Assembly: GCA_043228905.1 (NCBI GenBank)
Contig: JBHGNT010001286.1
Location: 1 to 10,298, forward strand
DNA length: 10,298 nt
Direction: 5' to 3'
Source: Azolla caroliniana
Lineage: Eukaryota > Plantae > Polypodiophyta
Below the pieces are notes generated by a model. That model was not told the origin of the DNA. It made no database searches and worked only from the letters and a program-made list of their open reading frames with translations. The position numbers and the translations under genes were made by a program. This document shows, piece by piece, positions 1-10,298 of this stretch. The first letter of the stretch is position 1, and each line of letters opens with the position of its first letter.

Positions 1-501
1 AGGTGGTCAATTTCTGATTCCCCTAGTTGCACGACCCTTTTCGCTTTTGAGGCGATGGTGGTCTGAGCCTCAATTTCTTCCTTCAAAGCGTCGATGGCGT
101 GGTTTGGTGGCGGAGTTGCGTGTTGCGCCATAGTTGCGTTAGCTTCCAACTCCGCGATGCGTTTGTTGGCATTTTGCAGCTCGGCTTGGGTCATTTTCAC
201 CTTCTTCCAGACATTCTTATTTTTAATGGCCATCTCTTTGGCGCTCGTGCTGACTTTTGCCAGTTCCCGATGGACTTCGACTAGGGCCGTGTTTAATGGG
301 GGTAGCTCCATCCCCACTCGGCGTACCTTGGCGTTCCTTTGTCTGCCGACCCTGGCTAGCCGGTCCTCATCGTCGCTCTCGATCATCTGGCGCTCCGCGT
401 GCTCCTCGGCCATTCGTTGGGAGGCTTTTATCTATTGTGTTGCCAGGAATTCCATGACCTCAAAAGAGGTTCCGAATTGTAAGAGGGCACTGAACTCATG
501 G

Positions 502-956
502 TGTTACGGGCATGACCATATAATATCCCGTGGTAAGAATTTACCGTAGTATTCTATACACGTGGATAAGTGTGAGGGTTAAACGAGAGTGTAAAGAAGG
601 GGAGGATTACTTTTAATCCTCGGGATTGAGACAACCCATTAGGTCAAGTGTGAACTTGCATGGGGGCCTTGGGTATTGCTATAAATAAGAGGCCTAGCTA
701 CCCTCATTGGATCATCTTTTGACTACATCGAGACTCTGCTCTTGTGGTGGGTCAACTCTTGTAGCGAGCATGCCAGCACCAGGTACGACTCGACGCCATT
801 GCGGTGGTATGGGACGCTGATCGAGGCTCGAGTCCGTCTCGATCCCTTCGCTCGGGGGTGGTCGGGTGGATCGGCACCCTTCTTTCTCTTTCTCCTTTCT
901 ATCTATCATTTCTTTATCCTTATCTTAAGCTTACGTTAATATTTAGATCTATAATA
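502..956 (+). mobile_element. Solo LTR (455 bp) of a second family
   Basis: Starts TGTTA and ends TAATA (probably TAACA with C>T). Flanked by the 5-bp direct repeat CATGG (497-501 and 957-961). Has an internal TATAAATA. Its removal restores the host reading frame. Confidence 0.88.
680..687 (+). promoter_or_regulatory. TATA box of the solo LTR
   Basis: CTATAAATAAGAGG is a typical plant LTR promoter context. It orients the LTR plus, which makes the 502 end U3. Confidence 0.65.
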
Positions 957-1267
957 CATGGGCCGTATCCGAGATATCTGGTTATGCCAAAACCTCGCTT
1001 TCCGTCGTCAATACGGCTTTCCCTCGTTGGGACTGGGTCGTAATGATCAGCCGAGGCTCCCGGATGATTTCAAAGGTGGTATTGGGCTCCGTAGCTGCAG
1101 AGCCATCGCCTTCGGTCGTTGTCTCTACCGCCGTGGGGACGTCTTTGACCAATCCCTGCTCATCTTTCCTGTCCAATCTACGTCGTTTCGGTCTGGGGCT
1201 ATCCTGCCATGTTTCGGTGTCTGGCTCTGGGGCTGCTGCCACAGAACGTGCAGACTGTTCCTCATGC

Positions 1268-1327
1268 GTTGTCCTTGTGTCCGGCTGGGCGGGAGGTGTT
1301 GTCCGCGTGTCTGGCTGGGCGAGTTGG
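1268..1327. repeat. Imperfect 30-bp tandem duplication encoding AQPDTRTT twice
   Basis: gttgtccttgtgtccggctgggcg and gttgtccgcgtgtctggctgggcg occur at 30-bp spacing. Confidence 0.75.
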
Positions 1328-1943
1328 GGTTCCTCTTCCCACTCTGGGCCGCTAACTATGCTAACCTGCGCTTCGCGGATCGTAGTGGGGGCGTGGGTCG
1401 GCTGGGCTGTGGTGCCGGTAGGCCTCGGGGTGGGAATAGTACCGTAAGGTACTGTTGTATGATCGGCTTGAGCTTTTTGCCTGCCTGATACGCATGCAGG
1501 CCTTCCCTTAATGCTGGCCCTATGATGACCCCCCAATCGACCGCACGCCCTTCAACGGTATCGATAATAATGCCCGCCTTCTGCTTGGGCATCCCATATG
1601 CGTTGACATGTACGCATCCGACCTCTAACAGGAACTTGGCAACTTCACGAAAGAAGGGATCCAGGATTTGCTTCGTTCTATAGGCCTTGGTGGAGGAGGA
1701 ATATGGCCCGAAATATCGCTGCAGCGCCTCTGCAGGAGGGATTTCGAAATGCCTTTCGCCTAGCGATGACAGGTCCAACTTTTTTCGGATGGAAGAGTTG
1801 GTGACCGTGTCGATGTTAAGCTTCCTGGCGATGTCCATGGCATCCGGGTGTGGGGGTGCCTTTGCGACCCGGATGTACCCATCCAGGTGTTTCTCCACGA
1901 GCCATCGGCGTAAGGCAGTAGAGATGAAGATCGACATCGCTAG

Positions 1944-2090
1944 TGTTACGGGCATGACCATTTAATATCCTGTGGTGAGAATTTACCGTAGCCTTCTTTA
2001 CACTCTCGTTTAACCCTCACACTTATCCACGTGTATAGAATACTACGGTAAATTCTCACCACGGGATATTAAATGGTCATGCCCGTAACA
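1944..2090. mobile_element. 147-bp LTR-end-derived hairpin (MITE-like) insertion with 48-bp terminal inverted repeats
   Basis: 1944-1991 matches the reverse complement of 2043-2090 at 47/48. 1944-1991 matches solo LTR 502-549 at 45/48. The reverse complement of 1992-2090 matches 502-600 at 97/99. TSD GCTAG lies at 1939-1943 and 2091-2095. Ends are TG...CA. Confidence 0.93.
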
Positions 2091-2386: not shown

Positions 2387-3530
2387 TTACACCGCGGGTT
2401 CTCCGACACTGTCCTGTTTGGCGGTGAATGGGTTAGGTGGCGTAGGGCCCAGGTAAGGTTTAAGGCGAAACCCATTCACCTTTTGCCGTACTACTTCCCC
2501 GGCCAGCGTACCTAGTTGGAACGTGCCTTGTTCCGCTCCAATTATCCAGTATGGGCCGGTCTAGCGGAATCGTAACTTCCTCGGCATATGGCCCATGCGG
2601 GTTTGGAAAACCAGCACCGCTCGACCGACGACGAACTCCTTTTCCCTTGCGTTTCGATGTCGATCCACAAACGCTTTACGCCGTCGTTGTTCCTGCTCCA
2701 ACACAGCCATGCTGTGTACGAGGTTTCCCCCGAGTTCGAGTAGCTGGTGGAGCCATACCTCCTCCGACTTGGCTTCCGATAGTCGGTCCCGTACCTGAAT
2801 CCGCAAACTGGGTACCTGAAATTCGACCAACATCACAACCACCAACCCAAACGCTAGTTGAAACGGTGTTGACTGTATGCTTGTTTTGTAGCTAGTTCTG
2901 TACGCCCATAACGCACTCTGTAATTTGGTATCCCAGTCCGTTCTATTTTCATTGACAATTTTCTTCAAGATGGTCTGCAATGTCTTGTTGGTGGATTTTG
3001 CTAACCCATTCGCTTGTGGATAATATGGCGTACTCTTCTTATGGACTACGATGTAATGATGTGTTAGTTCCCGAACCACCGTATTGAGAAAGTGACTCCC
3101 CTGGTCACTGATGAGCTCAATCGGACAGCCGAACCGGCACTAGATGTGCTCGTAAAGGAATCTGGCTGTGACGGCTGTCGTATTTTCTCGTAGTGCCTTT
3201 GCTTCTACCCACTTGGTGCAGTAATTTGTAGCTACCAATATGTATTTATTGCTCGTACGGGCTGCCGTCGGTGTGAAGGGGCCACGAAATCCAATCCCCA
3301 CTTTTGGAAGGGGTCTAGCGGTAATACGGGCTGGTGTGGCATCCTTGCGCCCTCCGTGGGCTGGCCCATCCGTTGACACAAATCACACTTTCTACAATAC
3401 TCGGATGCGTCCTTCTGCGTTGTTGGCCACCATAAGCCCGCCTGCCATATCTTCCGGGCTGTAACGTCACCCGCGTAATGGTCGCCTGCCGTGCCACAGT
3501 GCGCCTCCCATAAAACTGCTTCTATCTCAT
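2387..3530 (-). pseudogene. Integrase (HHCC zinc finger, DDE core, GPY motif)
   Basis: H..H..CRKCDLC, WGLDF, ELISDQGSHF, TPYYPQANGLAK (catalytic E mutated to K), *TGPY and VNGFRLKPY. Confidence 0.93.
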
Positions 3531-3859
3531 CCTGACGTACCCCACGTTGCCAAATGCCGTCACTGCCTTTGTGATATAAAACTCCTTCTACGAGGCAGAA
3601 GTTACGGCTTCGGACGGCTAGTTGTTTCTTCTCGTCCGTGCGTAATTGTGGTGGAGGCAGTCCAGTAGTCAAAAGGTATGTCATTTCCATAAGCCACCGG
3701 TCTAGAAAGGTCGATTCCGTTCTTTCTGCTAGTGCTGCTACCCGCAGGATGTCGGCGTCCGGAAAATCGTCATCATCTTTCTGTACTGTTTCTCCATTCT
3801 CGAGTCTGCTCAAAAAATCTGCCACCACGTGTTGCGTCCCTGGTCGGTGTTGGATTACG

Positions 3860-4170
3860 AAATTGAATTCTTGGAGCAACAGCATCCATCGCGCCAATTT
3901 CCCCGTTAGGGCTTGTTTCTCCACCAAATACAGTAGTGCCGAATGATCCACGTGGAACGTGAATTTCCTCCCTAGTAACTAATGCCGAAATTTATTGATG
4001 CTATAGATCTTCCCTAGCGCCTCCCGCTCCGTTGTGGAATAGTTACACTCTGTTGTTAATAATTTGCGACTAGCGTAGTACACTGGCCGGTACCAGTTTG
4101 GTTCAATGAGCTGCATTAGTGCACTTCCTATTGCTATGTCCGAGGCGTCGACGAACACGTGGAATGGCTT
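3860..4170 (-). pseudogene. RNase H domain (Ty3 type)
   Basis: FHVFVDAS, PVYYASRKL, NYSTTEREAL, VDHSAL and LARWMLLLQEF. Boundaries are approximate. Confidence 0.93.
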
Positions 4171-4439
4171 CGCCCAAACTAGTGGTTGTACGATGGGGGC
4201 CTGTGTGAGCATTATCTTAAGTGCCTCATAGGCCTTGTCCTCCGTTGCTGTCCATTGGAAGGGAGTCCAATGTACGACAGCATGTAACGGCGTGGTGAAG
4301 TCCGCCAAATATCGTATCATCCGACTATGCCACCGTATTTGTCCTAAAAACCGGTCGAGTGATTTCGCGTTTGTCAGAGTTTTGGCTTGCGTAATCGCGG
4401 AGATTTTGTTCGGATCGACCGCTTTTCCCTCCTTGTTGA

Positions 4440-5050
4440 CTATATGGCCCAGGAGAGTCTCGCTGGTCACGCCGAAGGCACATTTCGCGGGATTCAGGCT
4501 TAAGCGTGCGGTGCGGCAACGTTCCAGGAACAGTTGCAAGTGCGTAAAATGGTCTATTGTTCTCCCATATACCGTAAAGTCATCTAAAACAACATGCATG
4601 AACGCCAAAATGTATTCCCCAAAGATCTCCGTAATTGTCCATTGAAATGTTGTTGGCGCCGTTTTTAGCCCGAACATCATGACGGCTACCACATAGACTC
4701 CCCAGTCCGTGACAAATGTCGTCTTTTCTTGGTCCTCGGGATGCATGCGTACCTGGTTATACCCACTGAAGCCATCTAAAAAACTGTACATCTCATGTCC
4801 TGCGACGACGTCCAATACGCTATCGGTGAAGGGTAAAGGGAATGCGTCCGTAATGGTTATGACGTTTAATTTTCGGTAATCCACGCATACCCGTATTTTG
4901 CCGTTTTTCTTTGGAACGACCACTATTGGGCTTAACCAGGTGGCTTGTTTAACTGGCCGTATGAACCCCGCCTTCAGGAGTTTGTCAATTTCTTCTTTTA
5001 CGCGGGTCGCATAGTTTGGGTTCATGCGGTAGCAGCGCTGCTGGACAGGT
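4440..5050 (-). pseudogene. Reverse transcriptase domain
   Basis: WLSPIVVVPKKNGKIRVCVDYRKLN, FLDGFSGYNQ, MMFGLKTAPTTFQ, VLDD (DD at 4579-4584), LNPAKC and LLGH. Boundaries are approximate. Confidence 0.95.
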
Positions 5051-5595
5051 TTTGCGTCGGTTGCTAAATTGATCTTATGCTGATAGAACTTGGGATCTAA
5101 CCCCTTCATGTCCTTGTGAGCCCAAGCGAACATATGTTTATATTTCGTGAGTAGTGTGATCATCGTGTTTCTCTAGTCCGGCCTTAATTTCTTTGCGATG
5201 GAGAGGAAACGGGGTTCCGACTCCGTACCCACATTTACTTCTTCCAGGGCGGAGGCGGTGACTCGTCGTGAAATTTCCATTTCCCTTTTGAATGCAGCCC
5301 GTGCTCTGCTGAGTTCCAATATGGAATCTGGGTTTGGTTCGTAAGGCTCGTTGTGGAAAATAGTGGCCGTGGCATATTCTGCCGCGGTTGCGATGATGTC
5401 AATTTCGAACAACGGAATGATCCGTGGGTGCTCATCTAGGTATGCCTCTAATTCTGCATTCTCCACCCTAGCCAACATATTTATATCTTCTACGTATAAT
5501 GGTGTTATACCCTTGGGTTGTGGTGTGCTTCCTTCCGTAGGTACGCGAACCTTGGTGCGTCCGTGTCGGAAACTGATACACTTGTGTTGCCAGCT

Positions 5596-5900
5596 CTACT
5601 TGATATTTGCTGCCCGAAGCCATGGTCTGCCCAGAAGCACTGGGTACGCCCCTAGGGCGTCCAAGGCGAGGACAACCGCCGAGATGTCGAAGCGATGTCC
5701 GCCCATGATAATGCCTATCTTGCGAATTAACCCCAATGGTCGTACTGAACGGGTATCTGCCATTTGGAGCCAGAATGGGCAAGCCTCCCATTCTGAGATG
5801 CCTAATTGCTTGCAAGTTTTCGCGCTAATTACATTGACGCCTGAGCCGCCATCAATTACGCATCCAAGAATTTCTTGTCTGTGTAATATTAATGTAATAG
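5596..5900 (-). pseudogene. Aspartic protease domain
   Basis: CVIDGGSGVNVIS (catalytic D at 5851-5853) and YPVLLGRPWL. Boundaries are approximate. Confidence 0.88.
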
Positions 5901-6192
5901 CCGGGTTGTGGTGATCCACTCCAAGCGGGTCGTCGCTAACGTCTGTAAGGTTTGTAGCGACGCTCACCGCAGGTATGCCTGTCACCCGTTCTTCCATGGT
6001 CTGGCGGAAGCGTTGGACTAGCTGAAACAGCTTCTCCATGGTTAACATTATCTCACAGCCCGCTAATGCTTGCCAAATGGGGTCCGGGACCGGTCCTTCG
6101 TCTTCTACTTGCTCCCTCGCATTCGTGGACTCCTTCCGCATGCGCTCTGTATTGGTCGCGTTTGCTTTTTCCACCCATGCCTAGGCTTGTCG

Positions 6193-7743
6193 TCATATCT
6201 CATCTTGCGTAGCCCAATAAGCCGTTTTTGTTTGTTGGTGCGTCGTGACTTGCTGCACTTCCGCCGTAATCGTGATGACGGTGGGCCCCTTGCCCTTGCG
6301 TGCTGGGCATTGCGTGGCATAATGTCCAGGCTCCTGACAAATAAAACAATGGATACTTGATTCACCCTTCTCGATTCCTGGTGGTGTGTGCCGATCCCCT
6401 AGTGCGACTTGCTCCTCCTGGTCCGGCCTGGTTTGTCGGAACGCACGCGGTGGTTGCCGTTGGTCTCGTCGTGGTTCTTGGTGTCGCTCATCTCCCGAGC
6501 TTTCGTCGTAACGCCGGTGATCTCGATATTGCCGTGGCTTCCCACGATAACCATTGAAGCCGCCACGTTTGTTTGCCGGCTGGTGATTCTCATAGCACCG
6601 GCCCCCTTTAGCATAACTCAGATGTCCACGATAATCCTCATACTCTGGTTCGTCTTCCTCAGAATCATTGTGATTTCGGCGATTCCGGTGGTGCCGGTCG
6701 TCCCGTGGGTTGCGATCCATATACCGTGGTCGGTCTTCTTGCCTCCTTTGTTCAGTATGGCGTGGGGGACACTGTGTGTCCATGCTGCGGACTGTGGGAG
6801 CGGCTCTGTTCAACATATTGTATTCGCATTGTTCGACTGTGTGAGCCTTTGAGTGGCAGATTGGGTAGTGGATTCGCATGTTGCACTCCACTGCAGAATG
6901 CCCCGAGTTCAAGCAAATCGTGCACTGGATTACTTGACGAAACTGGCGTTCCTCGTCCTGGGGTAATGCTTTTCGTAAGGAGGAGATAGAAAACCTTTCC
7001 TCCTCCTCGTCCAACTTGACCTGTAACGCTCGTTGAATGACCATATTTTCCGTTTCCCCTTTCACGCTATTGTTGTTGAGCGTTGCCCGGATGGGTCGGC
7101 GTAATGCTGCCAGAATTGTCTCTCGAGCCTCGTCCTCTGCGGTGCTCCGTTCTAGTTTCCGCCGTAAATTTTGGAAACGTAAGCTAAAGTCTGCGATCGT
7201 CTCGGTTGGCAGTTGCTTAATCGTGTAGAACTGTCCGAGGATTTCGCATTGTGGAACCCTCCGATGGAAGAACCACAAGAAAGCGGACTGCAACTGATCG
7301 AAGGTCGTGATTGCTGGTAAATCCATCTGTGAATGCCAAAACGCCGCTCGCCCATCCAATGTTAACCCGAACTCCGTCATTTTCGATTGGTGCGCTACCG
7401 CCTCCGAAAGGCTCTGTGCCATGTGGTTCGCATTTCAGACATTAAGGAACATACGAATATGGGTTGCGGCGTCGGTTTCGCCGTTAAAGCAGGGATAGGC
7501 AAAGGCCATGCTGGGGGCTACGACGGGTCGGGAAAGACCAAATGATGGTTGTGGTGAGCGTGCTCCTCGCGTATTGTCGAGGTGTTTGGAGAGCGAAGAA
7601 TCACCTTTGTAATCACGGCAGGTAGTACTGAGGTCGCTGAGGCAAGGCTTCTACCGTGCGCGGTCCTCTGCCTGGCGTGTGACGGACCTTGTGATTGGCC
7701 GGTCTTGTCGTGTTGGTTCTCTGGGGCGTCTGCGGCTAAACAT
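6193..7743 (-). pseudogene. gag: Gag region: capsid-like retrotransposon gag domain plus CCHC zinc knuckles
   Basis: Motifs LDGRAAFW, FDQLQSAFLWFF and IKQLPTETIADFSLRF. Knuckles are CTICLNSGHSAVEC (6883-6924), (C>Y)PICHSKAHTVEQC (6826-6867) and CFICQEPGHYATQC (6307-6348). Confidence 0.9.
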
Positions 7744-7779
7744 CCATTCGTCGTTGCTCTTCTGTGAGAAGACACAGAT

Positions 7780-7793
7780 CACCAAGAGTGCCA
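7780..7793 (-). promoter_or_regulatory. Primer binding site (possibly a degenerate tRNA-Arg type)
   Basis: TGGCACTCTTGGTG begins 4 nt after the LTR's terminal CA and 50 nt upstream of the gag ATG. The tRNA identity is not verified. Confidence 0.7.
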
Positions 7794-7797
7794 AAAT

Positions 7798-8235
7798 TGT
7801 TACCGATTAGGAACACGGTCTGCGGTTAGTCCTTCGACCTAGAACTCCAAGTGATTGTGGAACAACGAATGGGGCGTCTATGCGTAATGCGTAGGGGAAT
7901 GTTCCCCATAACCTATCAACGTATAAGGGAGATGGCTACAACCGACTCCTTAGCAATGGTTACACTTACGTTCTTACACGCTCAGGTATTCCAGACACAC
8001 AATAGATTTAGCCGTACCTATACACAGACTTTCAGAGAAGATAGAATTCTATTACGATACGCTTCTTTACATTCCAAAATACACGCTCCCTCTATTAGAG
8101 GTTTTCTGCCCTTTATATACGCAGGGTCTATTTAGCCGTTCACGCTTCCTGCGTGAACCGTTACATGCGTTATGATCTTATATTATTTCTTATTCCTACG
8201 CTCTTATCCATCGATTACTATTCCGGTGGACAACA
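7798..8235 (-). repeat. LTR of the Gypsy element (438 bp, acting as 5' LTR)
   Basis: Termini are TGTT...AACA. On the minus strand it ends ...GGTAACA, 4 nt before a TGG-starting PBS, and it contains TATATAAAGGG. The partner LTR is not in the window, so the 8235 boundary rests on the terminal motif. Confidence 0.8.
8111..8119 (-). promoter_or_regulatory. TATA box of the Gypsy LTR
   Basis: Minus strand reads GTATATAAAGGG, oriented toward gag. Confidence 0.6.
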
Positions 8236-8237
8236 CC

Positions 8238-8254
8238 TGGCACGCCTGTGGGAC
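8238..8254 (+). promoter_or_regulatory. Second PBS-like motif (tRNA-Arg-like), antisense to the Gypsy element
   Basis: TGGCACGCCTGTGGGAC lies 2 nt after ...CAACA. It resembles the plant tRNA-Arg(UCU)-type PBS as I recall it (TGGCACGCCCGGTGGGAC), with a 1-nt indel and a mismatch. Confidence 0.6.
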
Positions 8255-8282
8255 AGTGCCCTAGCACGTCGGACCCATCTCG

Positions 8283-8630
8283 TTAATCTTCTTCCAAAAT
8301 GGCCCGGATGTTTGGCTCTGCTACGGTGTCTACGTCCGGAGGCGACGTAGGGCCCGTAGGTGCATCGTGGTGTGGCTCCCCTGTTTGGTCGGAATGGTTG
8401 CTCCCGGTGTCGCAGTCATCCTGTGTGGGCGGTCCGGGTACGGTGGGCTCTTCTTGAGCTAGTGGGTTGGGCTCCGCCGTCGTCGTGCTTGCGGTCGGCC
8501 GCGGCTCTGTGTCAATCGTTACTTCCTCCGTGGTGTCGACCATCTTTGTACGTTCCGGGGAGTGGGGCTAATTTACATGCTGTTCGGCTAAATTTTGAAT
8601 CGGGGTTGGTTGAGTCGGCTTGGTCACTCC
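8283..8630 (-). pseudogene. P/T/E/D-rich ORF fragment, probably the C-terminal tail of a Gypsy extra ORF from a truncated tandem copy
   Basis: ORF 8283-8543 extends upstream through one TAG. Its composition resembles the low-complexity part of 982-1536. It stops 47 nt before the LTR. The junction with the Copia remnant is not resolved. Confidence 0.4.
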
Positions 8631-8631
8631 T

Positions 8632-9312
8632 CTAGTCCTTCGGCCCTTCGGCTCTTTTAGACCTGGTGCTCGATTCCGGCTCTTCTCTTGCTACCTTTGA
8701 TTCAACTTTCCAGCTCTCCTCAGCTTGTTGTTGTAGTCCCATCTGTCTCCTTAGTGTTCCAAAGTGGTGATCTGGGCGCAGTTTCGTCACGCAATCTACA
8801 ATGTTCTCCTTTGTATCAACCTTCCAGACTTTGATCTTTTTATCAGTGACAAGCTCATGTATATGGTGATACCTCACCTCAATATGTTTCCTCATGGCAT
8901 GATAAACTAGATTCTGAATGAGGTGGATTGCGCTATGTGAGTCACAATATAGAGTTAGAGTGGGATGGTCGAATCATCTCTTGGCCGAAAAATTGACTGA
9001 TAGTTGTTGCATCCAAATTGCTTCTTTTGCTACCTTCAACGCAACGATGTACTCCGCCTCTGTGATGGAGATTGCCATGTACATTCTTGGAGTTTTGACC
9101 TCCGTAGGTGAAGATGTAGCCTGATGTCGATTTCCAATTGTCGGGGTTGTTGCCATAGTCAGAATCAGTGAAACCTCAACTTTGGTCGGATAGTTAGATC
9201 TAAAAGTCAGTTGTAAGTTCTTGGTTCCGCAAAGATACTGGAATATGTGTTTAACAACTTCCCAGTGTTTCTTTCCGGGATTAGAATTGTAGCGCATGGT
9301 GACGCTTACAAC
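8632..9312 (-). pseudogene. Old Ty1/Copia pol remnant (RT C-terminus and RNase H)
   Basis: RYNSNPGKKHWEVVKHIFQYLCGT, TDSDY...KSTSGYIFT (alternate frame), AISITEAEY, LYCDSHSAIHL, KHIEVRYHHI and KVDTKENIVD. Contains frameshifts and a deletion. Confidence 0.9.
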
Positions 9313-9750
9313 CATAGATTGACACATGCGTGATATTCTTGATAATCTCCATGCATGATACTCGCAATATTCGAGAATACGAAATGGCCCTAAGAATATT
9401 ATAAAACCATTCGTTTCGCAAAATAAATATACAAATAAATAAATAAATAATTTTTTTAAAATAGATAGATTTAATTCACTACAAAAAAACAATCATTCAT
9501 TAATAGATTAAAAAAATATGATTCGTATTTACTGTCCTTTATCACTAGTGTCAAATTGTTGAGAGTCGAACTCAACTTCCCATAGTAATAGGTTTCACAC
9601 TAGCTTATGGTCATACCAATCTAGTTTTGTAAATAGTAGAAAGGGCACTTGCCCTAGTTTAGTTGGTATTTAAACCAACCCCTTGTAACTTAGTTACGGT
9701 TGGAAGTATTTTGGTTAATGTAATATACAATCTTTTATCTCTATCTTAAG

Positions 9751-9776
9751 CTCTCTCTCTCTCTCTCTCTCTCTCT
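9751..9776. repeat. (CT)13 microsatellite inside the Copia LTR
   Basis: Read directly from the sequence. Confidence 0.95.
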
Positions 9777-9793
9777 GTGTTTTGCCTTACGTG

Positions 9794-9796
<3 letters not shown>

Positions 9797-9826
<30 letters not shown>
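9797..9826. repeat. (AC)15 microsatellite inside the Copia LTR
   Basis: Read directly from the sequence. Confidence 0.95.
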
Positions 9827-9829
<3 letters not shown>

Positions 9830-9870
9830 TATCTTCCGCTGCATTACACCACCAGCTCCATTTATTTACA

Positions 9871-9882
9871 TGGTATCAGAGC
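9871..9882 (+). promoter_or_regulatory. Primer binding site, initiator tRNA-Met
   Basis: TGGTATCAGAGC is the canonical plant tRNA-iMet PBS. Confidence 0.95.
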
Positions 9883-9974
9883 ATGTGGTTGCTTAATTGA
9901 ATCTATTCAACTGTGTTGTGGTACACGCTGACGATCAACAGAACCGGCTCATCAACAGAGAAGAAATCGACATA

Positions 9975-10298
9975 ATGAACACTCAGATGGGAAGCGCTCT
10001 TCCTACAGAGAAGCTTGACAGAACGAACTTCGCATCTTGAGAATACAAGATGCATCAATACCTTGTCGGACAAGGTTATTGGAGCTACATTGAAGGAGCT
10101 CACGAAACTCAACCCAACCCAACACACGCCGACTATCCTGCTTGGGTGCAGGCCGCAAGCCGTGTGTTGTATTGCCTTGCATCATGCATTCATGATCATA
10201 TGCTTGGCTATATTCGAGATTCGAAAACACTGAAAGAAGCTTGGGGAAACCTCAAGAAGATTTTTGCGGCCAACACGGCTGCACGAAAGCTCCAACTT
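9975..10298 (+). pseudogene. gag: Copia gag N-terminus (DUF4219/UBN2-like), partial, with a premature stop
   Basis: MNTQMGSALPTEKLDRTNFAS*EYKMHQYLVGQGYWSYIEG...KTLKEAWGNLKKIFAANTAARKLQL. TGA at 10038-10040 replaces the conserved Trp. This frame is absent from the supplied ORF track. Confidence 0.9.

Follow-up and report, generated by a model that had tools for sequence, protein, structure and literature searches.

The stretch of Azolla caroliniana DNA analyzed here (10,298 bp, referred to as the window) is occupied by a Ty3/gypsy element lying on the minus strand, in which gag is followed by the protease, RT, RNase H and integrase domains of pol. The gag gene (6193-7778, minus strand) has a zinc knuckle and is broken by stops and frameshifts, and pol (2464-6180, minus strand) is likewise broken. 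Within pol the protease was recognized by its own motif, without a Pfam hit, and the D-E-D residues of the RNase H are present, whereas a Pfam search of the window pieces returned neither an extra archaeal-type RNase H nor a chromodomain. Beyond pol follows an extra 3' ORF in sense orientation (1-1961, minus strand), which leaves the window at its left end and is interrupted by a solo LTR at 502-958. This ORF represents a protein family (window 1-1961 and P0121-P0130) whose members reach about 1075 amino acids; the family is without a convincing Pfam match, and Atlas gave only weak leads (<0.9), to plant mobile domain proteins.

The only LTR of the gag-pol element in the window is 438 bp long (7798-8235, minus strand; TGTT...AACA). 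Its end at 7798 is marked by varied flanks in sequencing run X3 (28 contigs, agreement 0.38), and its end at 8235 was placed by the TG terminus and by the LTR pair of a related complete element, L083, described below. Among the best 24 of 876 and the best 24 of 146 loose-end rows there was no varied-flank row at 8235, which may be explained by changes private to this copy at 8206-8227. On the minus strand the LTR end TAACA is followed by 4 nt, by TGGCACTCTTGGTG (7793-7780) and then by gag, an arrangement that identifies 7780-7793 (minus strand) as an ordinary minus-strand PBS of the tRNA-Arg(UCU) type. By eye, 11 of its 14 letters match the ends of flowering-plant tRNA-Arg(UCU), from which the tRNA of the host may differ. 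Two of the three differences keep G-U pairs, and the third, at 7787, is a letter private to this copy, since another letter makes up about 95% of the aligned depth in run X1.

The tRNA-like site on the other side of the LTR

On the plus strand the opposite end of the LTR reads CAACA, CC, TGGCACGCCTGTGGGAC (8238-8254). This is a mirror (antisense) PBS in the position of the PPT (8238-8254, plus strand), at which the sense strand of the element carries a copy of the 3' end of tRNA-Arg(UCU) including the CCA, separated from the LTR by a spacer of 2 nt (8236-8237, minus strand) that is also 2 nt long in L083. A sequence-only reading of the window had described both motifs, one 4 nt from the LTR and before gag, the other with equally canonical spacing on the plus side, and both were confirmed where it had placed them. 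The 17-mer TGGCACGCCTGTGGGAC occurs once in the window when up to 3 mismatches are allowed, against an expectation of 0.01, and TGGCAC occurs four times on the two strands of the window, twice at the two LTR ends. The same reading had reported that no PPT precedes the LTR; we find that the most purine-rich 12-mer in the 25 nt next to the LTR holds 8 purines, compared with 10-11 in three control elements.

The likeness to a tRNA runs on to 8278, past the motif described earlier. A 14-nt insert with a potential GTGC-loop-GCAC hairpin (8255-8268) separates the motif from a second tRNA-like block corresponding to the 5' half of the T arm and the loop (8269-8278, plus strand), 8 of whose 10 letters agree by eye with tRNA-Arg(UCU). 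In the first block the sense strand of the element has 16 of the last 18 letters of flowering-plant tRNA-Arg(UCU), again by eye and with the proviso that the tRNA of the host may differ; the two differences are one A for G and one missing letter, so that pairing would need one bulged letter. The insert sits at what we take to be the usual end of an 18-nt PBS, next to the methylated A58 (tRNA numbering). The letters would allow the fold proposed in the sequence-only reading, GGCAC with GTGCC, but structure prediction favors GTGC/GCAC (8256-8259 with 8264-8267), and neither fold beats shuffled sequences (z 1.38 as RNA, -0.34 as DNA).

As to which tRNA is copied, every listed row with GGCGTGCCA in the PMC8662596 supplement (14 of 25) is a nuclear tRNA-Arg(TCT) from a flowering plant. 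Five of the six substitutions that separate the sites of the window and L083 from these tRNAs would, by eye, keep G-T/U-G pairs with minus-strand DNA, which is a weak hint given that the tRNAs are foreign and that deamination is biased. Apart from L081 and L082, there was no tRNA gene in the window or in the 50 loci scanned. Two viral stretches were matched as candidates for a tRNA with this type of end, and neither was called a tRNA at the match; a search of 7700-8400 against Rfam gave only three matches, all of them due to chance.

The flank of the LTR and its conservation

DNA contigs from four public runs, each belonging to a different study (X1, X3, X4 and X9), were aligned to the window. 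In X1 the summed contig depth, which is not a copy number, was about 99,000 at 8256-8296, 4,600 at 8543-8583 and 39 at 8625-8665, and the fall past 8568 was the same in the other three runs. The fall marks 8236-8568 as repeated sequence that ends abruptly at 8568/8569, where it meets a Copia remnant whose near part is at single-contig depth. The repetitive flank is continuous with the LTR in all four runs. It encodes the C-terminal tail of an extra 3' ORF (8283-8568, minus strand), which ends in EPNIRAILEED-stop and is cut at 8568/8569 against the Copia remnant. With the N-terminal part of the extra ORF as query we retrieved 10 relatives among 1498 candidates; a tail of the form EP/DP-x-IL-x-I-acidic ends six of eight retrieved relatives and likewise the minus-strand frame at 8283-8567, and tblastn, run without the low-complexity filter, puts the tails of the relatives at 8283-8567, with weak E values for five proteins (7e-5 to 0.045). 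The earlier impression that an ORF tail upstream of the LTR resembles the extra ORF is thus borne out, the tail being the C terminus of that ORF, and of 8236-8630, which had been considered as the 3' internal end of this very family, depth and tblastn bear out the part as far as 8568 and not 8569-8630.

Because the flank is repetitive and encodes the extra-ORF tail, the LTR at 7798-8235 is shared between two units, as the 5' LTR of the gag-pol unit on the left and the 3' LTR of a truncated unit on the right. The accessible part of PMC11899658 describes tandem elements that share an LTR in the same order and in one orientation (internal 3' end, LTR, internal 5' end), although only 333 bp of the upstream unit are left in the window. 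By this analogy, tandem sharing would account for the arrangement but not for the motif.

The numbers of contigs aligned on 8196-8295 were 732, 622, 777 and 127 in the four runs. Across them the motif shows a change of 2% or more at 7 of its 17 positions and none above 9.4%, a conservation that is overstated because contigs without the motif align less readily to this 100-nt stretch. Six of the seven changes are C>T or G>A, and there is no indel among those listed. In the hairpin, loop positions 8261 and 8263 differ in 76-99.6%, and the stem letters are without a listed change. Loose ends fall before 8207-8232 and behind 8260 and 8276-8279, so that families diverge on both sides, which indicates that the tRNA-like block is common to sequences whose LTR interiors and internal ends differ from those of the window; the orientation of these sequences is not distinguishable in a contig alignment. 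The depth shares at 8243/8244 agree with pair-keeping change in all four runs and those at 8246/8248 in two of the four, where the pair-keeping change leads in X1 and X3 and the pair-breaking one in X4 and X9.

A second family and the control elements

Relatives of plant-type retroelements were found at 31 loci in a scan of a prokaryote genome collection, and only one of these, L083, is a full element. Its contig (G001:C10) joins retrotransposon-rich DNA to bacterial genes, the remainder being mostly bacterial and containing no tRNA, and is probably a chimeric or contaminated assembly. The RT of L083 is 62% identical to that of the window, whereas its LTR has no significant similarity to the window LTR. 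A single open frame of 2399 amino acids (8861-16060) covers its pol and extra 3' ORF, the extra part being weakly related to the extra ORF of the window (E 7e-7). The two LTRs (4991-6632 and 17097-18751) are 93% alike, and this pair fixes the start of the 3' LTR. They are flanked by CAATA and ATATA (4981-4990 and 18752-18761), which have 3 bp (ATA) in common, just as the flanks of the solo LTR in the window share 3 bp, but lack a clean target duplication of 4 or 5 bp; this could be due to chance or decay.

Two nucleotides before the 3' LTR, L083 has 15 of the 18 letters of another flowering-plant variant of tRNA-Arg(UCU), so that the CCA lies 2 nt from the TG of the LTR just as in the window. 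Behind the tRNA copy stands an 8-bp hairpin, which differs from that of the window and is longer, at the same place; the second tRNA-like block is weak, with only about 5 letters kept. L083 too is without a PPT before its 3' LTR (8 of 12 purines). At its 5' end, by contrast, the PBS agrees with tRNA-Arg(ACG) in all 18 letters. The difference between Arg(UCU) at the 3' site and Arg(ACG) at the 5' site indicates that the 3' site tracks a tRNA and not the PBS of its own element.

In an RT tree of 43 rows, from which loci with fewer than 200 aligned residues were left out, the window and L083 fall inside one clade of 9 rows (support 100/99). Outside the clade are L019, L027 and L061, which have ordinary PPTs with 10-11 of 12 purines; these are the three in which 3' junctions were scored among 80 metagenome loci, most of which are Athila/Ogre-like or too short. 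Five loci with repeats of unclear LTR start (L070, L072, L026, L079 and L004) were left out of the junction scoring, and the reading at full resolution covers two families, those of the window and L083. A further relative, L040, is 52-71% identical to the window integrase pieces, and at 1680-1904 its integrase end directly meets an LTR that is 89% like window 745-938, with neither a PPT nor a tRNA copy between them. This junction, which speaks against the priming mechanism proposed below, is likely a nested insertion, or alternatively a third kind of 3' junction.

Named relatives of the RT are liverwort, fern and pine proteins (43-50% identity), which point to a probable non-flowering plant as host. 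The window element has gag followed by PR-RT-RH-INT, and both it and L083 have a TG...CA LTR followed by a tRNA PBS, as expected of Ty3/gypsy elements, but lack the PPT before the 3' LTR. Their clade stands apart from rows with an Asp-type PBS and from Ogre-like rows, in a tree whose backbone is open and which contains no reference set. Like Athila, Tat/Ogre/Retand, Phygy and Selgy, as presented in the accessible parts of PMC6317226, the element has related RTs and an extra 3' ORF, and according to the same parts Ogre and TatIII have a tRNA-Arg PBS, as does the window element. Tat, on the other hand, has an extra RNase H, and no archaeal-type RNase H domain was found by Pfam in the window pieces, P0003 or P0158. 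Most Athila elements use tRNA-Asp/Asn (PMC6317226, in part) and keep a conserved PPT junction (ATHILAfinder, 10.64898/2026.03.20.713144, in part), in contrast to the Arg-type PBS and missing PPT found here. Phygy and Selgy are short, with a polyprotein that takes up the internal part, and have a Trp/Ala PBS (PMC6317226, in part), instead of the long extra 3' ORF and Arg PBS found here. A 4-bp target duplication is a further mark of Phygy and Selgy; the flanks of L083 show no clean one, and the far end of the window element lies beyond the window. Elsewhere, exact motif scans found nothing in viral contigs or prokaryote genomes, and a protein scan of the viral contigs gave no relative. Motif searches in five contaminated bacterial assemblies stayed at or near control level, none of the six matches read being an LTR junction. 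The PMC11658184 supplement held no matching sequence, and the accessible part of PMC11963269 no PBS sequences.

Initiation of the plus strand

The position of the site, its conservation, the absence of a PPT, the likeness to a tRNA and a layout shared with a second family are all observed, and the feature is real, family-wide and common to at least two families. At the mirror site the genomic RNA has the same sense as the tRNA, so that a tRNA could pair only with minus-strand DNA. We infer that host tRNA-Arg(UCU) anneals there on the newly made minus strand and primes the plus strand, and from the sequences we put the probability of this reading at roughly 0.6. RNase H would first clear the RNA from the mirror site. 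The tRNA would then pair in two segments, with its last 18 nt and with the 5' half of its T arm, around the looped-out DNA hairpin, and RT would extend from the CCA through the 2-nt spacer into U3. After removal of the tRNA by RNase H, integrase would trim the spacer. Two nucleotides is the length usually trimmed by integrase, and 8236-8237 would be the dinucleotide in question. The site would be copied from the RNA of the element and not from a tRNA, and therefore only selection could keep it tRNA-like. The suggestion made from the sequence alone, that the family may prime both strands with tRNA, thus gains from the demonstration that the flank is the family's own 3' end and from L083, the priming step itself staying conjectural. 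On balance we also favor a broader claim, that a whole clade of plant Ty3/gypsy elements gave up the PPT and has both DNA strands primed by host tRNAs. The two may even differ, as in L083, where Arg-ACG would serve the minus strand and Arg-UCU the plus strand, and the second tRNA would bind single-stranded DNA at a site divided in two by a hairpin.

The strongest competing account, which we nevertheless consider unlikely, is that the plus strand is primed by the element's own RNA. A tRNA-like hairpin stretch would survive RNase H and be cut just after the CCA, the tRNA likeness being either an old capture or a shape recognized by RT/RNase H. Position, spacing and conservation would be the same as under tRNA priming, and no new primer molecule is required; a hairpin kept at one place with different letters in two families also suits this account, as does the cleavage of Ty3, which follows local structure (PMC5371799, in its accessible part). 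Such a primer would have no need to track a host tRNA, yet the two families match two real variants of tRNA-Arg(UCU), and the stretch folds no better as RNA than its shuffles, as given above.

Decidedly improbable is a third account, in which the partner of the 3' motif is the 5' PBS of the same element, with formation of an RNA circle or a dimer or with self-priming of the minus strand, or the motif is instead the PBS of an antisense transcript, the plus strand starting in some other way. The 3' motif and 5' PBS of the window are indeed partly complementary (-16.0 kcal/mol), but the PBS ranks only 71st as a partner among about 820 windows of the element, a rank lowered by its private change. 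The motif of L083 pairs better with the window PBS (-22.7) than with its own (-16.5), its two sites match different tRNAs, and the missing PPT would be left unexplained. Finally, a single LTR in the window and a flank cut at 8568 against a Copia remnant would fit an accident or a relic, with the LTR inserted next to the PBS of an unrelated element on the plus strand, as the sequence-only reading had offered as its alternative, or the motif being a dead capture, but this is very improbable: in every run the flank is repeated sequence that joins the LTR without a break, it carries the tail of the family's extra ORF on the same strand as the element, and the layout recurs before the 3' LTR of L083, a full element from a different family.

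Priming of the plus strand from a PPT is treated in the accessible part of PMC5371799 as common to retroviruses and LTR retrotransposons. The Ty3 element described there resembles the window element in its tRNA-type PBS past the 5' LTR, in a plus-strand start just upstream of U3 and in its order of RT, RNase H and integrase, but the window element has at the start site a copy of a tRNA 3' end with CCA and no purine tract. Tract priming is combined with bipartite PBSs in Ty3 and Ty1 (PMC5371799, in part), and Drosophila Gypsy has a second, tRNA-complementary site near the 3' end of its RNA that is dispensable for cDNA synthesis (PMC1635307, in part). As far as these sources go, a tRNA-related site near the RNA 3' end is a feature in common with the window element, as would be segmented pairing that includes the T arm. 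At the sites of those elements, however, the genomic RNA is the complement of the tRNA, and their role is to help start the minus strand or to bring the ends together, whereas in the window element the RNA reads in the same sense as the tRNA, CCA end included, and the site stands in place of the PPT. Three kinds of minus-strand primer are distinguished in the survey of PMC6317226, which in the parts covered gives no replacement of the PPT. The sequence-only reading knew of no description of a tRNA-primed plus strand, and we found no account of one, or of an LTR element without a PPT, in the literature searched, most subscription papers lying outside the search.

If a successful clade of high copy number does without a PPT, RT must be able to start either on a DNA-bound tRNA or on an RNA that is not purine-rich, and each of these outcomes would change the textbook cycle. 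For annotation, tools that seek a PPT will miss or mis-orient such elements, and the mirror site can pass for a 5' PBS.

Other repeats in the window

The Copia remnant that abuts the cut Gypsy end is RT/RNase H-like and occupies 8569-9340 on the minus strand. A second Copia element begins on the plus strand at 9557-10298, with an LTR, a PBS at 9871 and gag (PF14223). The solo LTR inside the extra ORF (502-958; TGT...ACA) belongs to another family, and its flanks have only TGG (3 bp) in common when the ends are taken as TG...CA. Two head-to-head copies of the end of this solo LTR make up a 147-bp palindrome at 1944-2090, which is bordered on each side by the 5-bp direct repeat GCTAG and looks like a MITE-like derivative of an LTR.
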